In this document: one piece after another, positions 1 to 64,000 of the stretch | Layout of the letters: each line of letters opens with the position of its first letter | Position numbering within the stretch: position 1 is the first letter of the stretch | Position numbers and translations under genes: made by a program | The notes under the pieces: model-generated | What the model saw: only the letters and a program-made list of their open reading frames with translations | The model's database searches: none | Told to the model about the DNA's origin: nothing | DNA from: Eledone cirrhosa | Lineage: Eukaryota | Length of the DNA: 64,000 nt | Direction: 5' to 3' | Assembly: GCA_964016885.1 (NCBI GenBank) | Contig: OZ024744.1 | Span: 118,544,001-118,608,000 of the forward strand

Positions 1-3000
1 TGTTCCATGGAGGTTTTAAAGGATGCAGTGTCTCGACTGCTAATAACTGATGCAGGTAGATTGTTGTATGCAGGTTTTAAAGGATGCAGTGTTTCGACAG
101 TTAACAACTGATGCAGGTAGTCTGTTCCATGGAGCTTTTAAAGGATGCAGTCTCTTGACAGCTAACAACTGATGCAGGGAGTTTGTTCCATGGAGCATTT
201 AAAGGATGCAGTGTCTCGACAGCTAACAACTGATGCAGGTAGTCTGTTCCATGGAGGTTTTAAAGGATGCAGTGTCTCGACAGCTAATAACTTATGCAGG
301 TAGTTTCTTCCATGGAGGTTTTAAAGGTTGCAGTGTCTCGACAGCTAATAAATGATGCTAGTAGTTTCCTCCATGGAGCTTTTAAAGGATGCAGTGTCTC
401 GACAGCTAATAACTGATGCAGGTAGTTTGTTCCATGGAGATTTTAAAGTAGCAGTGTCTCGACAGCTAACAACTGATGCAGGTAGTCTGTTCCATGGAGG
501 TTTTAAAGGATGCAGTGTCTCGACTGCTAATAAATGATGCTGGTAGTTTCTTCCATGGAGGTTTTAAAGGATGCAGTGTCTCGACAGCTAACAACTGATG
601 CAGGTAGTTTGTTCCATGGAGGTTTTAAAGGATGCAGTGTCTCGACAGCTAACAACTGACGCAGCGACTTTGTTCCATGGAGGTTTTAAAAAATGCAGTG
701 TCTCGACAGCTAATAAATGATGCTAGTAGTTTGTTCCATGGAGGTTTTAAAGGATGCAGTGTCTCGACAGCTAACAACTGATGCAGGTAGTTTGTTCCAT
801 GGAGGTTTTAAAGGGTGCAGCGTCTCGACAGCTAATAACTGATGTAGGTAGTTTGTTCCATGGAGGTTTTAAAGGATGCAGTGTCTCGACAGTTAACAAC
901 TGATGCAGGTAGTCTGTTCCATGGAGCTTTTAAAGGATGCAGTGTCTCGACAGCTAATAACTGATGCAGGTAGTTTGTTCCATGGAGGTTTTAAAGGATG
1001 CAGTGTCTCGACAGCTAATAACTGATGCTGGTAGTTTGTTCCATGGGGGTTTTAAAGGATGCAGTGTCTCGACAGCTAACAATTGATGCAGGTAGTTTCT
1101 TCCATGGAGGTTTTAAAGATGCAGTGTCTCGACAGCTAATAATTGATGCAGGGTATTTGTTCCATGGAGCTTTTAAAGGATGCAGTCTCTTGACAGCTAA
1201 CAACTGATGCAGGTAGTTTGTTCCATGGAGGTTTTAAAGGATGCAGTGTCACAACAGCTTATAACTGATGCAGGTAGTTTGTTCTATGGAGGTTTTAAAG
1301 GATGCAGTGTCTCGACAGCTAATAACTGATGCTGGTAGTTTGTTTCATGGAGGTTTTAAAGGATGCAGTGTCTCGACAGCTAACAACTGATGCAGGTAGT
1401 TTGGTCCATGGAGGTTTTAAAGGATGCAGTGTCTCGACAGCTAACAACTGATGCAGGTAGTTTGTTCCATGGAGGTTTTAAAGGATGCAGTGTCACAACA
1501 GCTTATAACTGATGCAGGTAGTTTGTTCTATGGAGGTTTTAAAGGATGCAGTCTCTCGACAGCTAATAACTGATGCAGCTAGTTTGTTCCATGGAGGTTT
1601 TAAAGGATGCAGTGTCTTGACAGCTAATAAATGATGCTGGTAGTTTGTTCCATGGAGGTTTTAAAGGATGCAGTGTCTCGACAGCTAATAACTGATGCAG
1701 GTAGTTTGTTCCATGGAGCTTTTAAAGGATGCAGTGTCTCAATAACTAACAACTGATGCAGGTAGTTTGTTCCATGGAGGTTTTAAAGGATGCAGTGTCT
1801 CAATAACTAACAACTGATGCAGCGAGTTTGGTCCATGGAAGTTTTAAAGGATGCAGTGTCTCGCCAGCTAATAACTGATGCAGGTATTTTGTTCCATGGA
1901 GGTTTTAAAGGATGCAGTTTCTCGACAGCTAATAACTGATTCAGGTAGTTTGTTCCATGGAGCTTTTAAAGGATGCAGTGTCTCAATAACTAATAACTGA
2001 TGCAGGTAGATTGTTGTATGCAGGTTTTAAAGGATGCAGTGTCTTGACAGCTAATAAATGATGCTGGTAGTTTGTTCCATGGAGGTTTTAAAGGATGCAG
2101 TGTCTCGACAGCTAACAACTGATGCAGGTAGTCTGTTCCATGGAGCTTTTAAAAGATGCAGTGTCTTGACAGCTAACAACTGATGCAGGTAGTTTGTTCC
2201 ATGGAGGTTTTAAAGGATGCAGTGTCTCGACAGCTAACAATTGATGCAGGTAGTTTGTTCCATGCAGGTTTTAAAGGATAAAGTGTCTCGACAGCTAATG
2301 ACTGATGCAGGTAGTTTGTTCCATGGAGGTTTTAAAGGATGTAGTATCTCGATAGCTAACAACTGATGCAGCGAGTTTGTTCCATGGAGGTGTTAAAAAA
2401 TGCAGTGTCTCGACAGCTCATAAATGATGCAGGTAGTTTGTTCCATGGAGGTTTTAAAGGATGCAGGGTCTCGACAGCTAACAACTGATGCAGGTAGTTT
2501 GTTCCATGGAGGTTTTAAAGGATGCAGTGTCTTGACAGCTAATAAATGATGCTGGTAGTTTGTTCCATGGAGGTTTTAAAGGATGCAGTGTCTCGACAGC
2601 TAACAACTGATGCAGGTAGTCTGTTCCATGGAGCTTTTAAAAGATGCAGTGTCTTGACAGCTAACAACTGATGCAGGTAGTTTGTTCCATGGAGGTTTTA
2701 AAGGATGCAGTGTCTCGACAGCTAACAATTGATGCAGGTAGTTTGTTCCATGCAGGTTTTAAAGGATAAAGTGTCTCGACAGCTAATGACTGATGCAGGT
2801 AGTTTGTTCCATGGAGGTTTTAAAGGATGTAGTATCTCGATAGCTAACAACTGATGCAGCGAGTTTGTTCCATGGAGGTGTTAAAAAATGCAGTGTCTCG
2901 ACAGCTCATAAATGATGCAGGTAGTTTGTTCCATGGAGGTTTTAAAGGATGCAGGGTCTCGACAGCTAACAACTGATGCAGGTAGTTTGTTCCATGGAGG

Positions 3001-6000
3001 TTTTAAAGGATGCAGTGTCTTGACAGCTTATAACTGATGCAGCGTGTTTGTTCCATGGAGGTTTTAAAGGATGCAGTGTCTCGACAGTTAACAACTGATG
3101 CAGGTAGTCTGTTCCATGGAGCTTTTAAAGGATGCAGTGTCTCGACAGCTAACAACTGATGCAGGTAGTTTTTTCCATGGGTGTTTTAAAGGATGCAGTG
3201 TATTGACAGCTAATTATTGATGCAGGGAATTTGTTCCATGGAGCTTTTAGAGGATGCAGTGTCTCGACAGCTAACAACTGATGCAGGTAGTTTGTTCCAT
3301 GGGTGTTTTAAAGGATGCAGTGTCTCGACAGCTAACAACTGATGCAGGTAGTTTCTTCCATAGAGGTTTTAAAGGATGCAGTGTTTCGACAGCTAATAAC
3401 TGATGCAGGTATTTTGTTCCATGGAGGTTTTAAAGGATGCAGTCTCTCAATAACTAATAACTGATGCTGGTAGTTTGTTCCATGGAGGTTTTAAAGGATG
3501 CAGTGTCTCGACAGCTAATAACTGATGCAGGTATTTTGTTCCATGGAGGTTTTAAAGGATGCAGTCTCTCGACAGCTAATAACTGATGCAGCTAGTTTGT
3601 TCCATGGAGGTTTTAAAGGATGCAGTGTCTTGACAGCTAATAAATGATGCTGGTAGTTTGTTCCATGGACGTTTTAAAGATACTGTGTCTTGACAGCTAA
3701 TAACTGATGCAGGTAGTTTTTTCCATGGAAGTTTTAAAGGATGTAGTGTCTCGACAGCTAATAAATGATGCTGGCAGTTTCTTCCATGGAGGTTTTAAAG
3801 GATGCAGTGTCTCGACAGCTATCAACTGATGCAGGTAGTCTGTTCCATGGGTGTTTTAAAGGATGCAGTGTCTCGACAGCTAACAACTGATGCAGGTAGT
3901 TTGTTCCATGGAGGTTTTAAAGGATGCAGTGACTCGACAGCTAATAACTGATGCAGGTAGTTTGTTCTATGGAGGTTTTAAAGGATGCAGTCTCTTGACA
4001 GCTAACAACTGATGCAGCCAACTTGTTCCATGGAGGTTTTAAAAAATGCAGTGTCTCGACAGCTAATAAATGATGCTAGTAGTTTGTTCCATGGAGGTTT
4101 TAAAGGATGCAGTGTCTCGACAGCTAACAACTGATGCAGGTAGTTTGTTCCATGGCGGTTTTAAAGATTGCAGCGTCTCGACAGCTAATAACTGATGTAG
4201 GTAGTTTGTTCCATGGAGGTTTTAAAGAATGCAGTGTCTCGACAGTTAACAACTGATGCAGGTAGTCTGTTCCATGGAGCTTTTAAAGGATGCAGTGTCT
4301 CGACAGCTAATAACTGATGCAGGTAGTTTGTACCATGGAGGTTTTAAAGGATGCAGTGTCTCGACAGCTAATAACTTATGCAGGTAGTTTGTTCCATGGG
4401 GGTTTTAAAGGATGCAGTGTCTCGACAGCTAACAACTGATGCAGGTAGTTTCTTCCATGGAGGTTTTAAAGATGCAGTGTCTCGACAGCTAATAATTGAT
4501 GCAGGGTATTTGTTCCATGGAGCTTTTAAAGGATGCAGTCTCTTGACAGCTAACAACTGATGCAGGTAGTTTGTTCCATGGAGGTTTTAAAGGATGCAGT
4601 GTCACAACAGCTTATAACTGATGCAGGTATTTTGTTCCATTGAGGTTTTAAAGGATGCAGTGTCTTGACAGCTAATAAATGATGTTGGTAGTTTGTTCCA
4701 TGGAGGTTTTAAAGGATGCAGTGTCTCGACAGCTAATAACTGATGCAGGTAGTTTGTTCCATGGAGGTTTTAAAGGATGCAGTGTCTCAATAACTAACAA
4801 CTGATGCAGCGAGTTTGGTGCATGGAAGTTTTAAAGGATGCAGTGTCTCGACAGCTAATAACTGATGCAGGTATTTTGTTCCATGGAGGTTTTAAAGGAT
4901 GCAATTTCTCGACAGCTAATAACTGATGCAGGTAGTTTGTTCCATGGAGCTTTTAAAGGATGCAGTGTCTCGACAGCTAACAACTGATGCAGCGACTTTG
5001 TTCCATGGAGGTTTTAAAAAATGCAGTGTCTCGACAGCTAATAATTGATGCTAGTAGTTTGTTCCATGGAGGTTTTAAAGGATGCAGTGTCTCGACAGCT
5101 AACAACTGATGCAGGTATTTTGTTCCATGGAGGTTTTAAAGAGTGCAGCGTCTCGACAGCTAATAACTGATGTAGGTAGTTTGTTCCATGGAGGTTTTAA
5201 AGGATGCAGTGTCTCGACATTTAACAACTGATGGAGGTAGTCTGTTCCATGGAGCTTTTAAAGGATGCAGTGTCTCGACAGCTAATAACTGATGCAGGTA
5301 GTTTGTTCCATGGAGGTTTTAAAGGATGCAGTGTCTCGACAGCTAATAACTGATGCTGGTAGTATGTTCCATGGGGGTTTTAAAGGATGCAGTGTCTCGA
5401 CAGCTAACAACTGATGCAGGTAGTTTCTTCCATGGAGGTTTTAAAGATGCAGTGTCTCGACAGCTAATAATTGATGCAGGGTATTTGTTCCATGGAGCTT
5501 TTAAAGGATGCAGTCTCTTGACAGCTAACAACTGATGCAGGTAGTTTGTTCCATGGAGGTTTTAAAGGATGCAGTGTCACAACAGCTTATAACTGATGCA
5601 GGTAGTTTGTTCTATGGAGGTTTTAAAGGATGCAGTGTCTCGACAGCTAATAACTGATGCTGGTAATTTGTTCCATGGAGGTTTTAAAGGATGCAGTATC
5701 TCGACAGCTAATAACTGATGATGGTAGTTTGTTCCATGGAGGTTTTATAGGATGCAGTGTCTCGACAGCTAACAACTGATGCAGGTAGTTTGGTCCATGG
5801 AGGTTTTAAAGGATGCAGTGTCTCGACAGCTAATAACTGATGCAGGTATTTTGTTCCATTGAGGTTTTAAAGGATGCAGTCTCTCGACAGCTAATAACTG
5901 ATGCAGCTAGTTTGTTCCATGGAGGTTTTAAAGGATGCAATGTCTTGACAGCTAATAAATGATGCTGGTAGTTTGTTCCATGGAGGTTTTAAAGGATGCA

Positions 6001-9000
6001 GTGTCTCGACAGCTAATAACTGATGCAGGTAGTTTGTTCCATGGAGCTTTTAAAGGATGCAGTGTCTCAACAGCTAACAACTGATGCAGGTAGTTTGTTC
6101 CATGGAGGTTTTAAAGGATGCAGTGTCTCAATAACTAACAACTGATGCAGCGAGTTTGGTCCATGGAAGTTTTAAAGGATGCAGTGTCTCGACAGCTAAT
6201 AACTGATGCAGGTATTTTGTTCCATGGAGGTTTTAAAGGATGCAGTGTCTCGACTGCTAATAACTGATGCAGGTAGATTGTTGTATGCAGGTTTTAAAGG
6301 ATGCAGTGTTTCGACAGTTAACAACTGATGCAGGTAGTCTGTTCCATGGAGCTTTTAAAGGATGCAGTCTCTTGACAGCTAACAACTGATGCAGGGAGTT
6401 TGTTCCATGGAGCATTTAAAGGATGCAGTGTCTCGACAGCTAACAACTGATGCAGGTAGTCTGTTCCATGGAGGTTTTAAAGGATGCAGTGTCTCGACAG
6501 CTAATAACTTATGCAGGTAGTTTCTTCCATGGAGGTTTTAAAGGATGCAGTGTCTCGACAGCTAATAAATGATGCTGGTAGTTTCCTCCATGGAGCTTTT
6601 AAAGGATGCAGTGTCTCGACAGCTAATAACTGATGCAGGTAGTTTGTTCCATGGAGATTTTAAAGTAGCAGTGTCTCGACAGCTAACAACTGATGCAGGT
6701 AGTCTGTTCCATGGAGGTTTTAAAGGATGCAGTGTCTCGACTGCTAATAAATGATGCTGGTAGTTTCTTCCATGGAGGTTTTAAAGGATGCAGTGTCTCG
6801 ACAGCTAACAACTGATGCAGGTAGTTTGTTCCATGGAGGTTTTAAAGGATGCAGTGTCTCGACAGCTAACAACTGACGCAGCGACTTTGTTCCATGGAGG
6901 TTTTAAAAAATGCAGTGTCTCGACAGCTAATAAATGATGCTAGTAGTTTGTTCCATGGAGGTTTTAAAGGATGCAGTGTCTCGACAGCTAACAACTGATG
7001 CAGGTAGTTTGTTCCATGGAGGTTTTAAAGGGTGCAGCGTCTCGACAGCTAATAACTGATGTAGGTAGTTTGTTCCATGGAGGTTTTAAAGGATGCAGTG
7101 TCTCGACAGTTAACAACTGATGCAGGTAGTCTGTTCCATGGAGCTTTTAAAGGATGCAGTGTCTCGACAGCTAATAACTGATGCAGGTAGTTTGTTCCAT
7201 GGAGGTTTTAAAGGATGCAGTGTCTCGACAGCTAATAACTGATGCTGGTAGTTTGTTCCATGGGGGTTTTAAAGGATGCAGTGTCTCGACAGCTAACAAT
7301 TGATGCAGGTAGTTTCTTCCATGGAGGTTTTAAAGATGCAGTGTCTCGACAGCTAATAATTGATGCAGGGTATTTGTTCCATGGAGCTTTTAAAGGATGC
7401 AGTCTCTTGACAGCTAACAACTGATGCAGGTAGTTTGTTCCATGGAGGTTTTAAAGGATGCAGTGTCACAACAGCTTATAACTGATGCAGGTAGTTTGTT
7501 CTATGGAGGTTTTAAAGGATGCAGTGTCTCGACAGCTAATAACTGATGCTGGTAGTTTGTTTCATGGAGGTTTTAAAGGATGCAGTGTCTCGACAGCTAA
7601 CAACTGATGCAGGTAGTTTGGTCCATGGAGGTTTTAAAGGATGCAGTGTCTCGACAGCTAACAACTGATGCAGGTAGTTTGTTCCATGGAGGTTTTAAAG
7701 GATGCAGTGTCACAACAGCTTATAACTGATGCAGGTAGTTTGTTCTATGGAGGTTTTAAAGGATGCAGTCTCTCGACAGCTAATAACTGATGCAGCTAGT
7801 TTGTTCCATGGAGGTTTTAAAGGATGCAGTGTCTTGACAGCTAATAAATGATGCTGGTAGTTTGTTCCATGGAGGTTTTAAAGGATGCAGTGTCTCGACA
7901 GCTAATAACTGATGCAGGTAGTTTGTTCCATGGAGCTTTTAAAGGATGCAGTGTCTCAATAACTAACAACTGATGCAGGTAGTTTGTTCCATGGAGGTTT
8001 TAAAGGATGCAGTGTCTCAATAACTAACAACTGATGCAGCGAGTTTGGTCCATGGAAGTTTTAAAGGATGCAGTGTCTCGACAGCTAATAACTGATGCAG
8101 GTATTTTGTTCCATGGAGGTTTTAAAGGATGCAGTTTCTCGACAGCTAATAACTGATTCAGGTAGTTTGTTCCATGGAGCTTTTAAAGGATGCAGTGTCT
8201 CAATAACTAATAACTGATGCAGGTAGATTGTTGTATGCAGGTTTTAAAGGATGCAGTGTCTCGACAGTTAACAACTGATGCAGGTAGTCTGTTCCATGGA
8301 GCTTTTAAAAGATGCAGTGTCTTGACAGCTAACAACTGATGCAGGTAGTTTGTTCCATGGAGGTTTTAAAGGATGCAGTGTCTCGACAGCTAACAATTGA
8401 TGCAGGTAGTTTGTTCCATGCAGGTTTTAAAGGATAAAGTGTCTCGACAGCTAATAACTGATGCAGGTAGTTTGTTCCATGGAGGTTTTAAAGGATGTAG
8501 TATCTCGATAGCTAACAACTGATGCAGCGAGTTTGTTCCATGGAGGTGTTAAAAAATGCAGTGTCTCGACAGCTCATAAATGATGCAGGTAGTTTGTTCC
8601 ATGGAGGTTTTAAAGGATGCAGGGTCTCGACAGCTAACAACTGATGCAGGTAGTTTGTTCCATGGAGGTTTTAAAGGATGCAGTGTCTTGACAGCTTATA
8701 ACTGATGCAGCGTGTTTGTTCCATGGAGGTTTTAAAGGATGCAGTGTCTCGACAGCTAATAACTGATGCAGGTATTTTGTTCGATGGAGGTTTTAAAGGA
8801 TGCAGTGTCTCGACTGCTAATAACTGATGCAGGTAGATTGTTGTATGCAGGTTTTAAAGGATGCAGTGTTTCGACAGTTAACAACTGATGCAGGTAGTCT
8901 GTTCCATGGAGCTTTTAAAGGATGCAGTCTCTTGACAGCTAACAACTGATGCAGGGAGTTTGTTCCATGGAGCATTTAAAGGATGCAGTGTCTCGACAGC

Positions 9001-12000
9001 TAACAACTGATGCAGGTAGTCTGTTCCATGGAGGTTTTAAAGGATGCAGTGTCTCGACAGCTAATAACTTATGCAGGTAGTTTCTTCCATGGAGGTTTTA
9101 AAGGATGCAGTGTCTCGACAGCTAATAAATGATGCTGGTAGTTTCCTCCATGGAGCTTTTAAAGGATGCAGTGTCTCGACAGCTAATAACTGATGCAGGT
9201 AGTTTGTTCCATGGAGATTTTAAAGTAGCAGTGTCTCGACAGCTAACAACTGATGCAGGTAGTCTGTTCCATGGAGGTTTTAAAGGATGCAGTGTCTCGA
9301 CTGCTAATAAATGATGCTGGTAGTTTCTTCCATGGAGGTTTTAAAGGATGCAGTGTCTCGACAGCTAACAACTGATGCAGGTAGTTTGTTCCATGGAGGT
9401 TTTAAAGGATGCAGTGTCTCGACAGCTAACAACTGACGCAGCGACTTTGTTCCATGGAGGTTTTAAAAAATGCAGTGTCTCGACAGCTAATAAATGATGC
9501 TAGTAGTTTGTTCCATGGAGGTTTTAAAGGATGCAGTGTCTCGACAGCTAACAACTGATGCAGGTAGTTTGTTCCATGGAGGTTTTAAAGGGTGCAGCGT
9601 CTCGACAGCTAATAACTGATGTAGGTAGTTTGTTCCATGGAGGTTTTAAAGGATGCAGTGTCTCGACAGTTAACAACTGATGCAGGTAGTCTGTTCCATG
9701 GAGCTTTTAAAGGATGCAGTGTCTCGACAGCTAATAACTGATGCAGGTAGTTTGTTCCATGGAGGTTTTAAAGGATGCAGTGTCTCGACAGCTAATAACT
9801 GATGCTGGTAGTTTGTTCCATGGGGGTTTTAAAGGATGCAGTGTCTCGACAGCTAACAATTGATGCAGGTAGTTTCTTCCATGGAGGTTTTAAAGATGCA
9901 GTGTCTCGACAGCTAATAATTGATGCAGGGTATTTGTTCCATGGAGCTTTTAAAGGATGCAGTCTCTTGACAGCTAACAACTGATGCAGGTAGTTTGTTC
10001 CATGGAGGTTTTAAAGGATGCAGTGTCACAACAGCTTATAACTGATGCAGGTAGTTTGTTCTATGGAGGTTTTAAAGGATGCAGTGTCTCGACAGCTAAT
10101 AACTGATGCTGGTAGTTTGTTTCATGGAGGTTTTAAAGGATGCAGTGTCTCGACAGCTAACAACTGATGCAGGTAGTTTGGTCCATGGCGGTTTTAAAGG
10201 ATGCAGTGTCTCGACAGCTAACAACTGATGCAGGTAGTTTGTTCCATGGAGGTTTTAAAGGATGCAGTGTCACAACAGCTTATAACTGATGCAGGTAGTT
10301 TGTTCTATGGAGGTTTTAAAGGATGCAGTCTCTCGACAGCTAATAACTGATGCAGCTAGTTTGTTCCATGGAGGTTTTAAAGGATGCAGTGTCTTGACAG
10401 CTAATAAATGATGCTGGTAGTTTGTTCCATGGAGGTTTTAAAGGATGCAGTGTCTCGACAGCTAATAACTGATGCAGGTAGTTTGTTCCATGGAGCTTTT
10501 AAAGGATGCAGTGTCTCAATAACTAACAACTGATGCAGGTAGTTTGTTCCATGGAGGTTTTAAAGGATGCAGTGTCTCAATAACTAACAACTGATGCAGC
10601 GAGTTTGGTCCATGGAAGTTTTAAAGGATGCAGTGTCTCGACAGCTAATAACTGATGCAGGTATTTTGTTCCATGGAGGTTTTAAAGGATGCAGTTTCTC
10701 GACAGCTAATAACTGATTCAGGTAGTTTGTTCCATGGAGCTTTTAAAGGATGCAGTGTCTCAATAACTAATAACTGATGCAGGTAGATTGTTGTATGCAG
10801 GTTTTAAAGGATGCAGTGTCTCGACAGTTAACAACTGATGCAGGTAGTCTGTTCCATGGAGCTTTTAAAAGATGCAGTGTCTTGACAGCTAACAACTGAT
10901 GCAGGTAGTTTGTTCCATGGAGGTTTTAAAGGATGCAGTGTCTCGACAGCTAACAATTGATGCAGGTAGTTTGTTCCATGCAGGTTTTAAAGGATAAAGT
11001 GTCTCGACAGCTAATAACTGATGCAGGTAGTTTGTTCCATGGAGGTTTTAAAGGATGTAGTATCTCGATAGCTAACAACTGATGCAGCGAGTTTGTTCCA
11101 TGGAGGTGTTAAAAAATGCAGTGTCTCGACAGCTCATAAATGATGCAGGTAGTTTGTTCCATGGAGGTTTTAAAGGATGCAGGGTCTCGACAGCTAACAA
11201 CTGATGCAGGTAGTTTGTTCCATGGAGGTTTTAAAGGATGCAGTGTCTTGACAGCTTATAACTGATGCAGCGTGTTTGTTCCATGGAGGTTTTAAAGGAT
11301 GCAGTGTCTCGACAGTTAACAACTGATGCAGGTAGTCTGTTCCATGGAGCTTTTAAAGGATGCAGTGTCTCGACAGCTAACAACTGATGCAGGTAGTTTT
11401 TTCCATGGGTGTTTTAAAGGATGCAGTGTATTGACAGCTAATTATTGATGCAGGGAATTTGTTCCATGGAGCTTTTAGAGGATGCAGTGTCTCGACAGCT
11501 AACAACTGATGCAGGTAGTTTGTTCCATGGGTGTTTTAAAGGATGCAGTGTCTCGACAGCTAACAACTGATGCAGGTAGTTTCTTCCATAGAGGTTTTAA
11601 AGGATGCAGTGTTTCGACAGCCAATAACTGATGCAGGTATTTTGTTCCATGGAGGTTTTAAAGGATGCAGTCTCTCAATAACTAATAACTGATGCTGGTA
11701 GTTTGTTCCATGGAGGTTTTAAAGGATGCAGTGTCTCGACAGCTAATAACTGATGCAGGTATTTTGTTCCATGGAGGTTTTAAAGGATGCAGTCTCTCGA
11801 CAGCTAATAACTGATGCAGCTAGTTTGTTCCATGGAGGTTTTAAAGGATGCAGTGTCTTGACAGCTAATAAATGATGCTGGTAGTTTGTTCCATGGACGT
11901 TTTAAAGATACTGTGTCTTGACAGCTAATAACTGATGCAGGTAGTTTTTTCCATGGAAGTTTTAAAGGATGTAGTGTCTCGACAGCTAATAAATGATGCT

Positions 12001-12504
12001 GGCAGTTTCTTCCATGGAGGTTTTAAAGGATGCAGTGTCTCGACAGCTATCAACTGATGCAGGTAGTCTGTTCCATGGGTGTTTTAAAGGATGCAGTGTC
12101 TCGACAGCTAACAACTGATGCAGGTAGTTTGTTCCATGGAGGTTTTAAAGGATGCAGTGACTCGACAGCTAATAACTGATGCAGGTAGTTTCTTACATGG
12201 AGGTTTTAAAGGATGCAGTGTCTCGGCAGCTAACAACTGATGCAGGTAGTTTGTTCCATGGGTGTTTTAAAGGATGCAGTATCTCGACAGCTAACAACTG
12301 ATGCAGGTAGTTTGTTCCATGGAGGTTTTAAAGGATGCAGTGTCTCGACAGCTAACAACTGATGCAGGGAGTTTGTTCCATGGAGGCTTTAAAGGATGCA
12401 GTGTCTTGACAGCTAACAACTGATGCAGGTAGTTTGTTCCATGGAGGTTTTAAAGGATGCAGTGTCTCAATAACTAACAACTGATGTAGGTAGTTTGTTC
12501 CATG
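1..12504. repeat. 61-bp tandem satellite (~205 monomers, open at the left window edge) derived from the C-terminal codons of the adjacent CR1-like LINE ORF2
   Basis: Consensus TGTTCCATGGAGGTTTTAAAGGATGCAGTGTCTCGACAGCTAA(C/T)AACTGATGCAGGTAGTT repeats continuously. The minus strand reads WNKLPASVVSCRDTASFKTSM and runs directly out of LINE ...HYFTLRVAEAWNKLP at 12504. Confidence 0.97.
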
Positions 12505-14110
12505 CTTCAGCAACTCTGAGCGTGAAATAATGTTTCCGAAAGTCATGGGAGTTGTGCTGTTTTCTAACCTTGTAGGCATGCCCACGTGTGTTAGACACAT
12601 GGAAATCAAAAAGGTACTCAGGGTTGTTTTTGGCAAGATGGTTACTAATTTTGTGGGTGTTTACCAAGTCAGTTGCCAGACATCAGAGCTTCAATGTATC
12701 CATGCCCAAGGAAGCAAGGCGTTCAGCATATGGTAGATGCCTGATGGAGGGTATTCACTTGGTTGCACGTCTCTGAACAGTTTCGAGGAAGTCAATATTT
12801 TGAACAAGATAGGGGTTCCAGACTGGTGATGCAAATTCTAAGTGTGGCTGCACCATAGCTATATACAGCTTTAAATAGATAACCAGAGAGTGGCTGACAA
12901 AGGTCTTGCTGAGTTATGCTAAGACACCCTCGGCCTTCTTGACAATCTTAGATACGTGCTTCGTCCAATGCAAATCGCTGACCATAATGCCCATGTCACG
13001 TTCACAAGAAGACTTCTTGATATTAGTGTTGAGGAGGCAGTATGTGGACGCTGGGTTTTTACTCCTAAAATGCATGGTGGTACACTTGTCCACGGCTAGC
13101 TTTAGTTGCCAGTCCGTGATCCATTTCTGCATTGTGTCCAGGTCTGATTGCAGGAAAGATCTCTCTGTTTTATCTCAAGGTACAGCTTGATGTCATCTGC
13201 ATATTTCAGTATTGTAGCATTCTTTAAGTTGGCACCTATGTCATTAATATATGCCACAAAAAAAGGGGACAAAGAACAGATCCCTGTGATACACCAGATG
13301 ACATCTCATATGGTGAGGAATGCTGTCCTAGAATCGTGACTACTTCCCTTCAACTGAGAATGAAGGACTTCAAACAATTTAAAAGATCATCCTTCACACC
13401 CATTGCAGAGAGTTTTGCCATAAGTCTTTTGTGTGGCACAGAATTGAAAGCTTTAGCAAAGTCAAGGTAAACAACATCCACCCATGAGCCGCCATCAGTG
13501 ATCCAGGTGATGTCCTCAAGAAACTCTATAAGTTGATCACAGCAGCTGGAGTTGGGGATAAATCCAAATTGCGAGGGCCGGATAAGACTGTGAGAGCTCC
13601 AGAAGTTCCAAAGTGTTTCTCTGACACAGGATTCCATCAGTTTGGCAATGCAGCTAGTAAGACTGACTGGACGATAATTCACAGGTGATGTGCGGTCACC
13701 CTTTTTGAACAGAGGAATGACACTGGCAGTTTTCCACTGTTCTGGAGTAGCACCGTTGTTCAGACAGAATTGGAAGAAATGTGATAGCTGGTGCAGAAGG
13801 AAGTACCCACTACATTTGAGAAGCAGGTACTTAACACCATCAAGACCAGGAGAGACATGGTTGCGTTTATTTTTAAGGTGACGTCGCAGCATTGCAGGTG
13901 TAAATTCCATAGTTGTAATAGAATCCGGTGTCAGAGATGGTGGAGATGGTACACTTTGGTCTTCAACAGTGAAAATGCCTGCATAGCATTCAGCAATGAG
14001 CTCTGCGCATTGCTTGGGGTCGTCAGTAATCTGGCTTGTGTGGGGATTGCGAAGAGGACCAACTGGAGAGTGAGGCCTCTGCTTTGAGGAAACATATTTC
14101 CAGAACACCT
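12505..14110 (-). mobile_element. 5'-truncated, degenerate CR1/L2/Jockey-group (CR1-like) LINE, ORF2 reverse transcriptase region
   Basis: ORF 13350-14108 has SPGLDG, VIPLFKKGDR..NYRPVSLTS, QFGF and VDVVYLDFAKAFNSVPH. Downstream frameshifted pieces include GVSQGSVL..LKYADDIKLY (~13180-13300), WQLKLAVDKC, TRGH and RVAEAWNKLP. Confidence 0.9.
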
Positions 14111-20662: not shown

Positions 20663-20724
20663 CATATATATACACACACACACATATATATATATATATA
20701 CATATATATACACACACGTGAAGA

Positions 20725-26750: not shown

Positions 26751-26789
26751 ATATATATATATATCTTATAAGAAACACAAAATATTGTA

Positions 26790-33660: not shown

Positions 33661-33661
33661 C

Positions 33662-40160: not shown

Positions 40161-40516
40161 TACAAACCTTAACTTTACATCATTTTTCTCTTCATTAATT
40201 TTCAAATTCTTTTAATTTATACATTATCTTCCAACGGTTTTCAACCTCTCTATGTAAAACAATATATTTTTCTCAGTTATAAAAGCTATCTCTCTCTCTC
40301 TATCACCCATCTCTCCTCCTATTTCATCCTTCCTCATTATACTCCTCCCGCTCCACTTTTTACTCTCATCTCCTCCTCTTTTTCATCCTCCCCCCCCCCC
40401 CCCCCCTAAAAAAATATTTTTCCCAATATCACACATCAATCTAAAACTACTTTTCATATGTTGATTTAAAACTGCACTATCCACAAGTGTTTTTTAACCT
40501 TCATATCATGTCTTCC

Positions 40517-53779: not shown

Positions 53780-54825
53780 TACTACCTCACCTGTATTACC
53801 TCCCCTATTACCTGCCCTGTATTTCTATTCCCCTGTATTACCTCCCCTGTACTACTACCTCTCCTGTATTACCTCCCCTGCATTACCTCCTCTGTACTAC
53901 TAGCTCCCCCATGTTACCTCTCCTGTATTACTACCCCTGTACTACTACATCCCCTGTATTACGTCTCCTGTACTATTACCTTACCTGTACTACTACCTCC
54001 CCTGTATTACCTCCCCTGTACTACTACCTCCCCTGTACTACCTCCCCTGTATTACTACCTCCCTGTATTACCTCCCCTGTACTACCCCCCCCCCTGTATT
54101 ACCTCACCTGTATTACCTCCCCTGTACCACTACCTCCCCTGTACTACTACCTCCTCTGTATTACCTCCCCTGTACTACCTCCCCTGTACTACTACCCCCC
54201 CCCCTGTATTACCTCCCCTGTATTACCTCTGCTGTACTACCTCCCCTGTATCACCTCCCCTGTACTATTCCACTGTACTACCTCCCCTGTATTACCCCCT
54301 GTACTACCTCCCCTGTATTACTACCTCCACTGTATTACTACCTCCCCTGTATTACTACCTCCCCTGTATTACTACCTCCACTGTATTACTACCTCCCCTG
54401 TATTACTACCTCCACTGTATTACTACCTCCCCTGTATTACTACCTCCACTGTATTACTACCTCCCCTGTATTACTACCTCCACTGTATTACTACCTCCCC
54501 TGTATTACTACCTCCCCTGTATTACTACCTCCCCTGTATTACTACCTCCCCTGTATTACTACCTCCACTGTATTACTACCTCCCCTGTACTGCCTCCCCT
54601 GTACTACTACCTCCTCTGTACTCCTACCTCCCCTTTACTACTACCTCCCCTGTACTACTCCACCACCTGTATTACTACCTCCACTGTACTGCCTCCCCTG
54701 TACTACTACCTCCCCTGTACTACTACCTCCCCTGTATTACTACCTCCTCTGTACTACCTCCCCTGTATTACTACCTCCTCTGTACTACCTCCCCTGTATT
54801 ACCTCCCCTGTGTTACCTCACCTGT
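53780..54825. repeat. Degenerate short-period minisatellite (CTACCTCCCCTGTATTA-like, 14-17 bp units)
   Basis: Repeated TACCTCCCCTGTA(T/C)TAC motifs. Confidence 0.93.
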
Positions 54826-54968: not shown

Positions 54969-55123
54969 GTAAAGGAACTTACAAATGGAAAAGATCTGGG
55001 AATATGTATGATGGAGATTGGAGTCATGATAAAAGAAATGGATTTGGAACCTTAAGTATTCCAGACAGTCATGGAGGTCTTCGGAAACAGTACGCAGGAG
55101 GTTGGAAAAATGACAGGCGACAT
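54969..55123 (+). CDS. MORN3: MORN3-like coding exon 2
   Basis: Acceptor TAG|GT at 54968 completes the phase-1 Gly. KGTYKWKRSGNMYDGDWSHDKRNGFGTLSIPDSHGGLRKQYAGGWKNDRRH. Donor CAT|GTAAGA, phase 0. Confidence 0.92.
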
Positions 55124-55450: not shown

Positions 55451-55610
55451 GGTTATGGCGCCCATTTTTACAATTCCGAGGAATATTATGAAGGAGAATG
55501 GTATTGTGACAAAAGGAGTGGTTGGGGTCGGATGTATTATACTGATGGTAGTATCTATGAAGGAGAATGGTATGATGGAATGAGATTTGGACAAGGCATG
55601 TTACGGTTAG
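55451..55610 (+). CDS. MORN3: MORN3-like coding exon 3
   Basis: Acceptor TTCTCAG|. GYGAHFYNSEEYYEGEWYCDKRSGWGRMYYTDGSIYEGEWYDGMRFGQGMLRL. Donor G|GTTGGT at 55611. MORN repeats YEGEW..G...G.G. Confidence 0.92.
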
Positions 55611-55630
55611 GTTGGTGTTTCAGACGAATA

Positions 55631-55852
55631 TCCTTCCTCCATCTCCTCCTTCTTTGCCCACCTAGTCCTGAGTGGGTTAGGGGGTCAGAGTCCTCAAATA
55701 CTTCTAGCAGGTCCTGTCGGAAGCAACCATCTGCAGCTGATCCGGCTGGATCCCTAAGCAAAACCAGCCAAGCTCATGGATGTTATCCAACCATCTTGCT
55801 CCCGTTCTACCCCTGGGTCTTCTGTTGGTTGGTTTTACCTGTAAAATCTGTC
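55631..55852 (-). mobile_element. 3' end of an Expander/Rex3-like RTE LINE, contiguous with the 64-bp satellite
   Basis: Minus strand reads VRMSQERISGQILQVKPTNRRPRGRTGARWLDNIHELGWFCLGIQPDQLQMVASDRTC, matching the RTE C-terminal pattern P.GRRPRGRPR.RW.D....L.W..LGI.P..L..VA.DR. Confidence 0.85.
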
Positions 55853-58800
55853 CAGAGATTCTTTCCTGAGACATTCTAACTACATGTCATAGTATCAGAG
55901 CTGTGATCTCTCAATTCAATGTTTCTTTCCTGAGACATTCTAACCACGTGTCATAGTATCAGAGCTGTTATCTCTCAATTCAATGTTTCTTTCCTGAGAC
56001 ATTCTAACCACGTGTCATAGTATCAGAGCTGCGATCTCTCAATTCAGTGATTCTTTTCTGAGACATTCTAACTACATGTCATAGTATCAGAGCCGTGATC
56101 TCTCAATTCACAGATTCTTTCCTGAGACATCCTAACCACATGTCTGTAGTATCAGAGCTGTGATCTCTCAATTCAGAGATTCTTTCCTGAGACATTCTAA
56201 CTACATGTCATAGTATCAGAGCTGTGATCTCTAAATTCAGAGATTCTTTTCTGAGACATCCTAACCACATGTCTATAGTATCAGAGCTGTGATCTCTCAA
56301 TTCAGAGATTCTTTCCTGCGATATTCTAACCACATGTCACAGTATCAGAGCTGTGATCTCTCAATTCAGAGATTCTTTCCTGAGACATTCTAACCACATG
56401 TCATAGTATCAGAGCTGTGATCTCTCAATTCAGAGATTCTTTCCTGAGACATTCTAACCACATGTCATAGTATCAGAGCTGTGATCTCTCAATTCAGAGA
56501 TTCTTTCCTGAGACATTCTAACCACATGTCACAGTATCAGAGCTGTGATCTCTCAATTCAGAGATTCTTTCCTGAGACATTCTAACCACATGTCATAGTA
56601 TCAAAGGTGTGATCTCTCAATTCAGAGATTCTTTCCTGAGACATTCTAACCACATGTCAAAGTATCAGAGCTGTGATCTCTAAATTCAGTGATTCTTTCC
56701 TGTGACATTCTAACCACATGTCATAGTATCAGAGCTGTGGTCTCTCAACTCAGAGTTTCTTTCCTGTGACATTCTAACCACATGTCTGTAGTATCACAGC
56801 TGTGATCTCTGAATTCAGAGATTCTTTCCTGAGACATTCTAACTACATGTCATAGTATTAGAGCTGTGATCTCTTAATTTAGAGATTCTTTTCTGAGTCA
56901 TTCTAACCACATGTCTATAATATCAGAGCTGTGAACTCTCAATTCAATGTTTCTTTCCTGAGACATTCTAACCACATGTCATAGTATCAGAGCTGTGATC
57001 TCTCAATTCAGAGATTCTTTCCTGAGACATTCTAACTACATGTCATAGTATCAGAGCTGTTATCTCTCAATTCAGAGATTCTTTCCTGAGACATTCTAAC
57101 CACATGTCATAGTATCAGAGCTGTTATCTCTCAATTCAGAGATTCTTTCCTGAGACATTCTAACCACGTGTCATAGTATCAGAGCTGTTATCTCTCAATT
57201 CAATGTTTCTTTCCTGAGACATTCTAACCACGTGTCATAGTATCAGAGCTGCGATCTCTCAATTCAGTGATTCTTTTCTGAGACATTCTAACTACATGTC
57301 ATAGTATCAGAGCCGTGATCTCTCAATTCACAGATTCTTTCCTGAGACATTCTAAACACATATCATAGTATCAGAGCTGTGATCTCTCAATTCAGAGATT
57401 CTTTCCTGAGACATCCTAACCACATGTCTGTAGTATCAGAGCTGTGATCTCTCAATTCAGAGATTCTTTCCTGAGACATTCTAACTACATGTCATAGTAT
57501 CAGAGCTGTGATCTCTAAATTCAGAGATTCTTTTCTGAGACATCCTAACCACATGTCTGTAATATCAGAGCTGTGATCTCTCAATTCAGAGATTCTTTCC
57601 TGAGACATTCTAACCACATGTCACAGTATCAGAGCTGTGATCTCTCAATTCAGAGATTCTTTCCTGAGACATTCTAACCACATGTCATAGTATCAAAGCT
57701 GTGATCTCTCAATTCAGAGATTCTTTCCTGAGACATTCTAACCACATGTCAAAGTATCAGAGCTGTGATCTCTAAATTCAGTGATTCTTTCCTGTGACAT
57801 TCTAACCACATGTCATAGTATCAGAGCTGTGGTCTCTCAACTCAGAGTTTCTTTCCTGTGACATTCTAACCACATGTCTGTAGTATCACAGCTGTGATCT
57901 CTGAATTCAGAGATTCTTTCCTGAGACATTCTAACTACATGTCATAGTATTAGAGCTGTGATCTCTTAATTTAGAGATTCTTTTCTGAGTCATTCTAACC
58001 ACATGTCTATAGTATCAGAGCTGTGATCTCTCATTTCATAGATTCTTTCATGAGACATTCTAACCACATGTCATAGTATCAGAGCAGTGATGTCTCAATT
58101 CAGAGATTCTTTCCTGGGACATTCTAACCACATGTCATAGTATCAGAGCTGTGATCTCTCAATTCACAAATTCTTTCCAGAGACATTCTAACCACAGGTC
58201 ATAGTATCAGAGCTGTGATCTCTCATTTCAGAGTTTCTTTCCTAAGACATTTTAACCACATGTCATAGTATCAGAGCTGTGATCTCCCAATTCAGAGACT
58301 CTCTCCTGAGACATTCTAACCACATGTCTGTAGTATCAGAGCTGTGATCTCCCAATTCAGAGACTCTCTCCTGAGACATTCTAACCACATGCCCATAGAT
58401 AGAATTAGAGCTGTGATACCTCAATTTAGAGATTCTTTCCTGAGTCATTCTAACTACATGTCATAGTAGCAGAGCTGTGATCTCTCAATTCACAGATTCT
58501 TTCATGAGTCATTCTAACTACATGTCATAGTATCAGAGCTGTGATCTCTCAATTCACAGATTCTTTCCTTTAGTCATTCTAACCACATGTCATAGATTCA
58601 GAGCTGTGATCTCTCAATTCACAGATTCTTTTCTTGAGTCATTCTAACCACATGTCATAGTATCAGAGCCGTGATCTCTCAATTCACAGATTCTTTCCTG
58701 AGACATTCTAACTACATGTCAAAGAATCAGAGCTGTGATCTCTCATTTCAGAGATTCTTTCCTGAGACATTTGAACCACATGCCCATAGAATCAGAGCTA

Positions 58801-61800
58801 TGATATCTTAATTCAGAGATTCTTTCCTGAGACGTTCTAAACATATGTCTATAGTATCACAGCTGTGATCTCTGAATTCAGAGATTCTTTCCAAAGACAT
58901 TCTAACCACATGTTTGTAGTATTAGAGCTGTGATCTCTCAATTCACAGATTCTTTCCTGAGACATTCTAACCACATGTCATAGTGTCAGAGCTGTGAGCT
59001 CTCGTTTCAGAGTTTCTTTCCTAAGACATTTTACCCACATGTCATAGTATCAGAGCTGTGATCTCTAAATTCAGAGATTCTTTCCTGAGACATTCTAACC
59101 ACATGTCATAGTATCAGAGCTGTGATCTCTAACTTCACAGATTCTTTCCTGAGACATTCTAACCACATGTCATAGTATCAGAGCTGTGATCTCTCAATTC
59201 AGAGATTCTTTCCTGAGACATTCTAACCACATGTCAAAGAATCAGAGCTGTGATCTCTCATTTCAGATATTCTTTCCTGAGACATTTGAACAACATGCCC
59301 ATAGAATCAGAGCTATGATATCTTAATTCAGAGATTCTTTCCTGAGACGTTTTAAACATATGTCTATAGTATCACAGCTGTGATCTCTGAATTCAGAGGT
59401 TCTTTCCAGAGACATTCTAACCACATGTCTGTAGTATCACAGCTGTGATCTCTGAATTCAGAGATTCTTTCCTGAGACATTCTAACCACATGTCCATAGT
59501 ATCAGAGCTGTGATCTCTGAATTCAGAGATTCTTTCCTGAGACATTCTAAACATATGTCTATAGTATCACAGCTGTGATCTCTGAATTCAGAGATTCTTT
59601 CCAGAGACATTCTAACCACATGTTTGTAGTATTACAGCTGTGATCTCTCAATTTAGAGATTCTTTTCTGAGTCATTCTAACCACATGTCCATAGTATCAG
59701 AGCTGTGATCTCTCATTTCATAGATTCTTTCCTGAGACATTCTAACCACAGGTCATAGTATCAGAGCTACCATCTCTCAATTGAGAGATTCTTTCCTGAG
59801 ATTTTTCAACACATGTCATAATATCAGAACTGTGATCTCTCAATTCAGAGATTCTTTCCTGAGACATTCTAACCAAATGTCTGTAATATCAGAGCTGTGA
59901 TCTCTCAATCCAATGATTATTTTTTGAGCCATTCTAACCCATGTCCATACTATCAGAGCTGTGATCTCTTAATCCAGAGATTCTTTCCTGAGATATTCTA
60001 ACCACATGTCATAGTATCAGAGCTGTGATCTCTCAATTCAGTGATTCTTTCCTGAGACATTCTAACCACATGTCATAGTATCAGGGCTGTGATCTCTAAA
60101 TTCAGAGATTCTTTCCTGAGACATTCTAACCACATGTCATAGTATCAGAGCTGTGATCTCTTAATTCAGAGATTCTTTCCTGAGACATTCTAACCACATG
60201 TCATAGTATCAGAGTTGTGATCTCTCAATTCAGAGATTCTTTCCTGAGACATTCTAACTACATGTCATATTATCAGAGCTGTGATCTCTAAATTCAGAGA
60301 TTCTTTCCTGAGACATTCTAACCACATATCATAGTATCAGAGCTGTGATCTCTAAATTCACAGATTCTTTCCTGAGACATTCTAACTGCATGTCAAAGAA
60401 TCAGAGCTGTGATCTCTCATTTCAGATATTCTTTCCTGAGAAATTTGAACAACATGCCCATAGAATCAGAGCTATGATATCTTAATTCAGAGATTCTTTC
60501 CTGAGACGTTTTAAACATATGTCTATAGTATCACAGCTGTGATCTCTGAATTCAGAGATTCTTTCCTGAGACATTCTAACCACATGTTTGTAGTATTAGA
60601 GCTGTGATCTCTCAATTTAGAGATTCTTTTCTGAGACATTCTAACCACATGTCCGTAGTATCAGAGCTGTGATCTCTCATTTCATAGATTCTTTCCTGAG
60701 ACATTCTAACCACATGTCATAGTATCAGAGCTGTGATGTCTCAATTCAGAGATTCTTTCCTCAGACATTCTAACCACATGTCATAGTATCAGAGCTGTGA
60801 TCTCTCAATTCCCAGATTCTTTCCTGATACATTCTAACCACAGGTCATAGTATCAGAGCTGTGATCTCTCAATTCAGAGATTCTTTCCTGAGACATTCTA
60901 ACCACATATCTGCAGTATCACAGCTGTGATCACTGAATTCAGAGATTCTTTCCTGAGACATTCTAACCACATGTCATATTATCAGATCTGTGGACTCTCA
61001 ATTCGCAGATTCTTTCTTGAGACATTCTATCCACATGTCATAGTATCAGAGCTGTGATCTCTCAATTCAGAGACTCTCTCCAGAGACATTCTAACCACAT
61101 GCCTATAGAATTAGCGCTGTGATACCTCAATCCAGAGATTTTTTCTTGAGACATTCTAACCTCATGTCATATATCAGAACTGTGATCTCTCAATTCAGAG
61201 ATTCTTTCCTGAGTCATTCTAACCAAATGTCCATAGTATCAGAGCTGTCATCTCTCAATTCAGAGATTCTTTCCTGAGACATTCTAACCACATGTCATAG
61301 TATCAGAGCTGTGATCTCTTAATTCAGAGATTCTTTCCAGAGACATTCTAACCACAGGTCATAGTATCAGAGCTGTGATCTCTCAATTCAGAGATTCTTT
61401 CCTGAGACATTCTAACCACATATCTGCAGTATCACAGCTGTGATCTCTGAATTCAGAGATTCTTTCCTAAGACATTCTAACCACATGTCATATATCAGAA
61501 CTGTGATCTCTCAATTCAGAGATTCTTTCCTGAGTCATTCTAACCAAATGTCCATAGTATCAGAGCTGTCATCTCTCAATTCACAGATTCTTTCCTGAGA
61601 CATTCTAACCACATGTCATAGTATCAGAGCTGTGATCTCTCAATTCAGAGATTCTTTCCTGAGTCATTCTAACCACATATCATAGTATCAGAGCTATGAT
61701 ATCTTAATTCAGAGATTCTTTCCTGAGACGTTTTAAACATGTCTATAGTATCACAGCTGTGATCTCTGAATTCAGAGATTCTTTCCTGAGTCATTCTAAA

Positions 61801-64000
61801 CATATGTCTATAGTATCACAGCTGTGATCTCTGAATTCAGAGATTCTTTCCTGAGACATTCTAAACATATGTCTATAGTATCACAGCTGTGATCTCTGAA
61901 TTCAGAGATTCTTTCCGGAGACATTCTAACCACATGTCTGTAGTATCACAACTGTGATCTCTCAATTCACAGATTCTTTCCTGAGACATTTTAACCACAT
62001 GTCAGAGTATCAGAGCTGTGATCTCTCAATTTAGAGATTGTTTCCTGAGTCATTCTAACCACATGTCCATATTATCAGAGCTGTGATCTCTCAATTCAGG
62101 GATTCTTTACCGAGACATTATAACCACATGTTATAGTATCAGAGCTGTGATCTCTCAATTCAGAGATTCTTTCTTGAGACATTCTAAACATATGTCTATA
62201 GTATCACAGCTGTGATATCTGAATTCAGAGATTCTTTCCAGAGTCATTCTAACCACATGTCCATAGTATCAGAGCTGTGATATCTTAATCGAGAGATTCT
62301 TTCCTGAGACATTCCAACTGCATGTCTATACTATCAGGGCTGTGATCTCTCAATTCAGAGATTCTTTCCTGAGACATTATAACCACATGTTATAGTATCA
62401 GAGCTGTGATCTCTCAATTCAGAGATTCTTTCCTGAGACATTCTAACCACATGTCTGTAGTATTGGAGCTGTGATCTCTCAATTCAGAGATTCTTTCCTG
62501 AGACATTTTAACCACATGTCATAGTATCAGAGCTGTCATCTCTCAATTGATAGATTCTTTCCTGAGACATTCTAACCACATGTCAACGATTCAGAGCTAT
62601 CATCTCTCAATTCAGAGATTCTTTCCTGAGATTTTTAAACACATGTCATAGTATCAGAGCTGTGATCTCTCATTTCATAGATTCTTTCCTGAGACATTCT
62701 AACCACATTCATAATATCAGAGCTGTGAACTCTGAATTCAGAGTTTCTTTCCATAGACATTCTAACCACACGTCTGTAGTATCACAGCTGTGATCTCTCA
62801 ATTCAGTGATTCTTTCCTGAGACATTCTAACAACATGTCATAGTATCAGAGCTGTGATCTCTCAATTCAGTGATTCTTTCCCTAACCACATGTCATAGTA
62901 TCAGAGCTGTGATCTCTCAATTCAGAGATTCTTTCCTGAGACATTCTAACAACATGTCATAGTATCAGAGCCGTGATCTCTCAATTCAGAGATTCTTTCC
63001 TGAGACTTTCTAACCACATGTCTGTAGTATCACAGCTGTGATCTCTCAATCCAGTGATTATTTTTGGAGCCATTCTAACCCGATGTCCATACTATCAGAG
63101 CTGTGATCTCTTAATCCAGAGATTCTTTCCTGTGACATTTTAACCACATGTCTGTAATATCAGAGCTGTGATCTCTCAATTCAGAGATTCTTTCCTGAGC
63201 CATTCTAACTTCATGTCATAGTATCAGAGCTGTGATCTCCCAATTCAGAGATTCTTTCCTGAGTCGTTCTAACCACATGTCCATAGTATCAGTGCTGTGA
63301 TCTCTCAATTTAGAGATTCTTTCCTGAGACATTCTAACTCCATGTCATAGTATCAGAGCTTTGATCTCTCAATTCATAGATTCTTTCCTGAGATAATCTA
63401 ACCACATGTCCATATTATCAGAGCTGTGATCTCTCAATTCATAGATTCTTTCCTGAGACATTCTAACCACATGTCATAGTATCAGAGCTGTAATCTCTCA
63501 ATTCAGAGATTCTTTCCTGAGACATTCTAACCACATATCATAGTATCAGAGCTATGATCCCTTAATTCAGAGATTCTTTCCTGAGACGTTCTAAACATAT
63601 GTGTATAGTATCACAGCTGTGATCTCTGAATTTAGAGATTCTTTCCTAAGACATTCTAACCACATGTCATAGTATCAGAGCTGTGATCTCTCAATTCAGA
63701 GATTCTTTCCTGAGACATTTTAACCACATGTATAGTATCAGAGCTGTGATGTCTCAATTCACAGATTCTTTCCTGAGATATTCTAACCACATGTCATAGT
63801 ATCAGAGCTGTGATCTCTCAATTCAGAGATTCTTTCCTGAGACATTTTAACCACATGTATAGTATCAGAGCTGTGATCTCTCAATTCAGAGATTCTTTCC
63901 TGAGACATTCTAACCACATGTCATAGTATCACAGAGCTGTGATATCCCAATTCACAGATTCTTTCCTGAGACATTCTAACTACATGTCATAGTATCAGAT
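55853..64000. repeat. 64-bp (63-65 bp variants) tandem satellite, ~127 monomers, open at the right edge, derived from an RTE ORF segment
   Basis: Consensus CAGAGATTCTTTCCTGAGACATTCTAACCACATGTCATAGTATCAGAGCTGTGATCTCTCAATT. The minus strand of the 65-bp variant reads L*IERSQL*YYGHVVRMSQERIS. Confidence 0.96.

Follow-up and report, generated by a model that had tools for sequence, protein, structure and literature searches.

Tandem arrays built from retroelement fragments at the MORN3 locus of the cephalopod Eledone cirrhosa

Satellites derived from transposable elements in other genomes

Arrays built from pieces of transposable elements (TEs) have been described in several genomes, and we draw on these descriptions as far as the accessible parts of the cited papers go. 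In the human genome, 23% of minisatellites and satellites derive from TEs; their expansion is local, and long flanking repeats are absent from most of them (PMC3389668). How the majority of TE-derived repeats begin is unexplained, the account given in the same paper covering 6%. Here we analysed a 64,000-nucleotide stretch of the genome of Eledone cirrhosa (assembly GCA_964016885.1, contig OZ024744.1, positions 118,544,001 to 118,608,000 of the forward strand), hereafter the window, which carries a MORN3 gene and three arrays that we call A1 (61-bp unit), A2 (64/65-bp unit) and A3 (100-bp unit). These arrays are new examples of TE-derived tandem repeats, an outcome already known in other animals. 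They constitute a worked example and not a new mechanism, since the parent, the junction, the founder mutations and the growth steps of three arrays are readable at one locus. All three, together with a smaller 60-bp repeat, consist of head-to-tail units of at least 20 bp, and the units of A1, A2 and A3 either show homology to a TE or continue the register of an adjoining TE copy over at least one period. We consider it probable that each of the three began independently as a short duplication in a TE copy already inserted, with microhomology as an aid in A1 at least, and then grew by unequal exchange and conversion.

The human mini- and satellites resemble these arrays in several respects: their units represent part of a TE, the array overlaps the host copy, expansion is local, several families serve as sources, and most cases lack a flanking repeat of 5-20 bp (PMC3389668). 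They differ in size, with an average of 2-3 units in human, whereas the arrays from the CR1-like and RTE-like long interspersed nuclear elements (LINEs) of the window have more than 205 and more than 127 units, respectively. Chicken CR1 satellites (HinfI/SCR1; Cen2, 3, 4, 7, 11) likewise contain the end of ORF2 and the 3' region of CR1 (PMC9659126, PMC6947457), but the A1 unit, at just 61 bp, breaks off about ten codons ahead of the stop and adjoins a protein gene. Similarly to A3, the amphibian satellites derived from short interspersed nuclear elements (SINEs), Xenopus satellite 1 and Hydromantes Hy/Pol III, repeat a tRNA-related SINE head in tandem (PMC9659126); in contrast to them, A3 comprises 11 copies and its B box has been lost. 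The maize repeats CRM1TR and CRM4TR show the same repeated, independent birth from similar retroelement regions and growth by recombination and conversion, but they derive from long terminal repeat elements, have much longer units (~1370 nt for CRM4TR) and are centromeric or pericentromeric (Sharma et al. 2013, PMC3648361).

A parallel of another kind is found in the giant introns of Drosophila kl-3 and kl-5, where a satellite fills the intron of a gene for an axoneme-family product (PMC6508621), as A2 does in MORN3; here, however, 8.1 kb of satellite are seen in the window and the unit is complex and LINE-derived. Satellites have also spread in the gene-rich DNA of flies (PMC7403614) and beetles (PMC11610590). 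For cephalopods, we found no report of TE-derived arrays by title or start of abstract in the literature searched, whose coverage excluded subscription journals, and in the accessible text of an octopus paper (PMC9115989) the whole words satellite and tandem have 0 occurrences.

The arrays, their parents and their growth

The original prediction, a reading of this DNA from its letters alone, had proposed four arrays of 61, 64, 100 and 60 bp, and Tandem Repeats Finder (TRF) recovered all of them. Positions and sizes refer to the 64-kb window; A1 leaves it at the left end and A2 at the right end, so that their sizes are lower bounds. A1 and its host are as follows.

1..12504, minus strand: array A1, 61-bp unit repeated 205.1 times (TRF), running off the left end of the window
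12505..14162, minus strand: decayed CR1-like LINE, host of A1, with reverse transcriptase (RT) domain and C-terminus (Pfam RVT_1, E 2e-14; 4 stops in 236 codons)

Proteins of Octopus sinensis and O. vulgaris matched this LINE best, with 71-72% identity. The CR1 label of the parent is presumptive and comes from its C-terminal motif, and its relatives are annotated in their sources only as jockey-like RT. On the minus strand, the host LINE passes unbroken into the first unit, which is in frame with the LINE C-terminus and represents about 20 codons near the end of ORF2, stopping about ten codons short of the stop. The majority unit is an open frame almost identical to the C-terminus of one homolog (P0106). 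The homologs extend about ten codons further, to the stop, with Ser followed by Met or Leu and then Leu (P0006, P0008, P0010, P0106). The motif CATG is common to the A1 flank and the unit end, and because octopus-like homologs continue with Ser-Met-Leu or similar beyond the unit end, the junction homology amounts to 4 bp; the chance of at least 4 bp is 0.019. A protein search with the peptide that crosses the A1 junction returned no matches.

The A1 array comprises 195 monomers of 61 bp and 10 of 60 bp. Of these 205 monomers, 85 are distinct, and they differ from the majority by 5.7%, a divergence that is even along the whole array. Near-identical blocks are found within it: a block of 41 monomers recurs at lag 42 (1 difference in 2499 bp), one of 27 at lags 144 and 102, one of 21 at lag 135 and one of 8 at lag 8. 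A1 has grown as blocks of 8 to 41 monomers were duplicated, with spacings that bear no relation to one another; such a mixture of lags fits unequal exchange or repair out of register, and not a single rolling circle. In the microcircle route, one of the mechanisms offered by the original prediction, circles cut from TE copies would undergo rolling-circle amplification before reinserting in register. The 4-bp microhomology at the A1 junction might close such a circle, and later mutation might mask an early homogeneous run. However, neither A1 nor A2 has a constant higher-order period (A1 has lags of 8, 42, 102, 135 and 144, and in A2 a single short block recurs with lag 17), and the units join the host TE scar-free, which makes this route extremely unlikely.

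The second array lies inside MORN3, a gene on the plus strand of the window. Its three coding exons found here align to solved MORN3 chains, so the name that it had been given stands; the rest of the exons lie beyond position 64000, outside the window.

24776..24932, plus strand: MORN3 coding exon 1, matching solved MORN3 residues 2-49 (E 2e-12)
54969..55123, plus strand: MORN3 coding exon 2, solved MORN3 residues 49-100, within one 847-nt contig of run X2
55451..55610, plus strand: MORN3 coding exon 3, solved MORN3 residues 102-154
55623..55852, minus strand: 3' tail (230 bp) of a decayed RTE-like LINE, host of A2, in MORN3 intron 3, with in-frame stops and belonging to a high-copy family in contigs
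55853..64000 (TRF to 63999), minus strand: array A2, 64/65-bp unit repeated 126.7 times (127 monomers), running off the right end of the window

Contigs of four public runs of one study (X1 to X4) were aligned to window positions 54830-55990. In X2, a single 847-nt contig (depth 5.35) spans MORN3 exons 2 and 3 equally and leaves the unique intron uncovered, which is consistent with a spliced transcript. This contig exceeds what the first coding exon requires by only ~15 nt, so it lends no support to transcription of A1 together with MORN3. Intron 3 has at least 8.4 kb, ends beyond position 64000 and is ~97% satellite inside the window. The intronic arrays are likely spliced out of the MORN3 transcript, and a function is not required of them.

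The A2 unit is in frame with the LINE tail, which ends just within MORN3 intron 3. The RTE label is presumptive and comes from a C-terminal motif; the window contains no RT of the A2 parent. A 65-bp monomer could be aligned with the C-terminal ends of two further LINE families of the window (none of 1000 shuffles was as good, in three comparisons), whereas no alignment was obtained with the A1 parent (497 of 1000 shuffles were as good). Judged from these alignments, the source of the A2 unit is the C-terminal coding region of an RTE-like LINE. The tail alone found no homolog in protein searches, and BLASTP against two LINEs of the window was not significant.

The A2 parent belongs to a high-copy family in the contigs of these runs. 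Relative to the contig majority, the tail shows at least 19 differences over 188 positions (~10%). The A2 monomers comprise 69 of 64 bp and 46 of 65 bp; 113 are distinct and they differ by 6.2% from the majority. Parent-type loose ends in the contigs possess one base more than the array, and in X1, X3 and X4 they have the Arg codon CGA, while the loose-end consensus of X2 (11 contigs) presents a stop (TGA) instead. At the position of this codon, the 127 monomers have TGA in 118 cases, TAA in seven, TGC in one, CAA in one and CGA in none. The ancestral A2 unit thus had 65 bp, the 64-bp form being a subsequent deletion. The founder was probably an already decayed LINE copy, because no monomer retains the parent Arg codon, which is CGA in the loose-end consensus of three of the four runs. 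At the junction, the homology is at least 1 bp, since the parent consensus extends just one base beyond it and that base is shared. The divergence of the tail (~10%) is near the sum of founder (~3-5%) and monomer (6%) divergence, which fits a local birth early in the life of this copy.

These founder states bear on the reiterative template jumping of RT that the original prediction had suggested. According to this explanation, a LINE RT slips or jumps back near the 3' end of its RNA at insertion, so that first repeats with 55-65 bp units are produced across the lineage. Both large units lie at most ~250 bp from LINE 3' coding ends, the majority unit of A1 has an open frame like that of the parent, and run X3 has a separate 55-bp back-joint of the same RTE-like tail (depth 263). 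In addition, younger TE families give more tandem repeats in human and retrotransposition may start some of them (PMC3389668). Against these points, none of the 127 A2 monomers has the parent state of the codon, which disfavours template jumping for A2, and A3 lacks the B box. The hundreds of copies and the multi-kb block duplications require growth at the DNA level regardless, and 3' ends are the commonest parts of LINEs. LINE inserts are 5'-truncated, and the 3'-end bias of the array units follows from this. Finally, the dimers of A1 (z 1.05), A2 (z 0.43) and the 60-bp repeat fold no better than shuffles, which speaks against hairpins as a cause; the A3 unit folds modestly better than shuffles (z -2.28). 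We regard slippage at insertion as very unlikely overall, with A1 as the array for which it is still a candidate.

The A2 family likely extends well beyond the copies in the window. In X1, the summed contig depth, which is not a copy number, reaches ~5.9e5 at positions 55919-55922 and ~8e5 at the peak of the LINE tail, compared to 2 on unique sequence. Because parent-type contigs on the second unit begin at 55923, we infer that the contigs at 55919-55922 are only those that cross the junction. Explicit head-to-tail joints of A2 are also present among the contigs, one variant reaching a depth of 1761-1871 in X3 and X4. Three unit variants with depths of 155-366 are missing from the 127 monomers of the window. 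The A2 family is likely far larger than its copy number in the window, whether spread over many loci or contained in one very long intronic block.

It is possible that A2, and perhaps A1, was born once in a master LINE copy and carried to many loci, MORN3 being a recipient. The route could be retrotransposition of an array with its tail or recombination of the satellite, possibly as extrachromosomal circular DNA (eccDNA), into homologous LINE copies. This agrees with the junction depth in X1, with the unit variants absent from the window and with X2, in which only exons of MORN3 are covered and yet the junction positions reach a depth of 14,867. Satellite spread via microhomology and eccDNA is known in Drosophila (PMC7403614) and Tribolium (PMC11610590). 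On the other side, the letters of the tail in the window are rare in the contigs, where they account for no more than 53 of a depth of 1235 at 55665 and 81 of 2466 at 55673, although these may be private mutations; the tail divergence matches that expected from a local birth; and a single long array past position 64000 accounts for the depth equally well. We consider such a dispersal unlikely.

A bolder combination is that the 64/65-bp satellite is a major family of the genome, with a block of hundreds of kb or more in MORN3 intron 3, and that LINE 3' coding ends of molluscs recurrently yield satellites of 55-65 bp. We hold this to be quite unlikely. If true, the MORN3 block would constitute a cephalopod parallel to the intron gigantism of Drosophila, built from a retroelement, and the interest of the family would grow if it formed a giant intronic block in an axonemal gene. 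A genome-wide peak of 55-65 bp at LINE 3' ends would matter because the start of most TE-derived repeats is unexplained. The back-joint of ~55 bp in the RTE-like tail (55741-55794), in X3 only at depth 263, and another of 145 bp in a repeat of MORN3 intron 2 (55147-55291) are a hint of more tandem units from TEs at other places in the genome.

The third array occupies MORN3 intron 1 in sense orientation.

25642..26752, plus strand: array A3, 100-bp unit repeated 11.1 times (TRF), in MORN3 intron 1
20718..20960, plus strand: dispersed SINE-like copy related to the A3 unit by alignment, with A box and B box by box scan

Two dispersed SINE-like copies, at 20718 (plus strand) and ~33500-33670 (minus strand), are related to the A3 unit by alignment, and the A3 monomers differ from the majority by 2.2%. 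In the box scan, whose A-box and B-box patterns are those we presume to be typical, the unit corresponds to a SINE-like head in which the A box is present and the B-box segment is missing. The unit therefore lacks the paired A box and B box of RNA polymerase III that mark a tRNA-derived SINE. ARAGORN called no tRNA in it, and 97 Rfam matches in 20600-26900 included no tRNA family; all of these scored below the gathering threshold and fell on AT-rich or inverted repeats, none of them on A3. No 3' tail follows the last unit of the array. At the A3 junction, 2 bp are shared (chance 0.17). The least decayed element of the window starts 20 bp past A3, a LINE with an open frame of 744 codons (26772-29006, plus strand) that includes RT and a PHD-like finger.

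Origin of the arrays

Our favoured reading of independent duplication starts from a locus made mostly of TE debris, where the two large units come from LINE 3' coding ends. A slip or repair event with 1-4 bp of microhomology would have doubled 61, 65 or 100 bp, and the resulting dimer would have expanded through unequal exchange and gene conversion, lately via the copying of multi-monomer blocks, a pattern that is visible in the arrays. Among the three mechanisms named by the original prediction, microhomology duplication followed by unequal exchange gives the best fit. The window also has tandem duplications with quite different lengths (17, 38, 200, ~436 and ~619 bp), which count in favour of ordinary duplication, and the absence of the B-box segment from the A3 founder counts in favour of seeding in a decayed copy.

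The co-occurrence of three TE-derived arrays can be compared to the content of the locus. Outside arrays, exons and microsatellites, the window has 39,894 bases. Matches to TE-coded proteins cover 40.3% of them, dispersed copies within the window exist for 46.4%, and at least one of the two applies to 64.9%, the last value being likely a lower bound. With this cover, the chance is 0.27 that three of three arrays are TE-derived and 0.56 that at least three of four are. Three such arrays are expected because about two thirds of the local DNA outside arrays is repeat-derived. The TE origin proposed for the three arrays was confirmed, with A1 and A2 in frame with LINE remnants and A3 aligned to SINE-like copies; the special regional or lineage-wide mechanism invoked to explain them finds no support in these figures.

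Other traits had been proposed as common to the two large arrays. A shared antisense orientation relative to MORN3 does not hold, as A1 sits 12.3 kb upstream of the start codon, and A3 and the GIY-YIG-like remnant described below are on the plus strand. Short microhomology is no common trait either, with 4 bp in A1, at least 1 bp in A2 and 2 bp in A3. A1 and A3 lack the flanking direct repeat of at least 5 bp of a Haber-Louis origin, to which A2 may still conform, its parent consensus showing 1 base past the junction. This origin is a duplication between direct repeats of 5-10 bp, as summarised in the accessible text of PMC6947457.

The original prediction had also speculated that the arrays are retained as antisense sources of small RNAs against their parent TEs. 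The sequence places A2 inside a MORN3 intron and antisense to its parent, and the pre-mRNA would consequently contain antisense copies, and the A2 unit is found in the exon-only run X2. However, A1 is outside the coding span, and A3 is in sense orientation and lacks the B box. The junction-to-tail ratio of 0.47 in X2 is not above the 0.73 of X1, and so there is no sign of A2 enrichment in X2; the contigs carry neither strand nor size. The monomers have diverged by ~6% and have no conserved block. Retention for this purpose appears most improbable.

Several observations weigh against independent duplication in decayed copies. The Arg codon of A2 is a fast-decaying CpG site, and the X2 loose-end consensus shows the TGA state outside the array. 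The high abundance of A2 permits its arrival at MORN3 from another locus. The two large arrays both have parents on the minus strand, although the plus strand carries 11 of the 16 LINE-coding segments, a coincidence with a chance of ~0.1. Microhomology is strong in A1 only, values of 1 bp (0.46) and 2 bp (0.17) being frequent by chance. The near-identical blocks of A1 may partly be assembly duplication. Because the A1 majority unit is open and parent-like, with the CpG kept in 152 of 205 monomers, A1 may have been seeded at insertion. Finally, the unit lengths of 60, 61 and 64 bp cluster, as the original prediction had pointed out for 61 and 64 bp, but the clustering is borderline: the probability that three of n log-uniform periods fall within a span such as 60-64 is 0.013, 0.034 and 0.07 for n = 6, 8 and 10, in a post hoc test with an arbitrary null for a window that has 7 to 9 non-simple duplications. 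There may be a weak preference for units of 55-65 bp. The 55-bp back-joint and a 61-bp array of abalone, whose origin is unproven, are leads in the same direction.

Other repeats and elements in the window

The remaining repeat, of 60 bp, lies near a Penelope-like remnant.

39345..39565, plus strand: GIY-YIG-like (Penelope-like) remnant (tblastn), with a longer relative at 45571-46416
39988..40161, no strand assigned: 60-bp repeat, 2.9 copies (TRF), in AT-rich DNA downstream of the remnant

The remnant has no Pfam match and a PDB search of its frame gave no useful result; as a lead, Atlas matches at 0.95 link it to clusters with GIY-YIG on 32-45% of members. The 60-bp repeat starts ~420 bp after the remnant and is flanked by two blocks common to a second GIY-YIG-like copy, where the unit itself has no clear alignment. 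The TE parentage predicted for it was not recovered, and the argument for such an origin is positional only.

A further array was missing from the original prediction, as were two-copy tandem duplications of 38, 200, ~436 and ~619 bp.

53780..54811, no strand assigned: 17-bp minisatellite, 66 copies (TRF), with no parent found in the window

This minisatellite is purine/pyrimidine-skewed and located immediately upstream of MORN3 exon 2. The two longest duplications are direct, in two copies and bounded by microsatellites: 43791-44900 (~619 bp spacing) and 22185-22806 (~436 bp).

Two proteins were considered as relatives of A1 and left out of the evidence. The first, P0103 of the abalone Haliotis rufescens (XP_048249821.1), is a 61-bp tandem unit translated in three frames, which explains 60 of 61 residues (34-36 in controls). 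Relative to A1, 31 of 61 bases are equal in the same phase, as in 1 of 3000 shuffles, in a search that aimed at such likeness; outside a Trp-Asn core, it scores below all 67 homologs. Its derivation from CR1 is unproven, and the protein, named zonadhesin-like, is likely a false gene model. The second, P0104, shows a period of 52 residues and nothing that points to a relation. Scans of metagenome contigs for exact patterns found nothing.

The window contains four near-perfect palindromes of 220-330 bp that are 92-97% self-complementary (32953-33279, 16374-16677, 38980-39200 and 23815-24107), several of which adjoin Penelope-like or SINE-like pieces. A second SINE-like family of ~200 bp has about ten copies, often paired in direct or inverted orientation (22946-23430, 23775-24107, 29669-30085, 35966-36158 and 47950-48491), the pair at 29669-30085 being a head-to-tail dimer. 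A frame of 234 codons on the minus strand (37748-38452) has no Pfam match; presumably, it resembles the endonuclease end of site-specific non-LTR elements. Finally, a young element of ~220 bp is present in three copies that are 97-99% identical (16013-16246, 34451-34655 and 34738-34970), two of them inverted around a short spacer.

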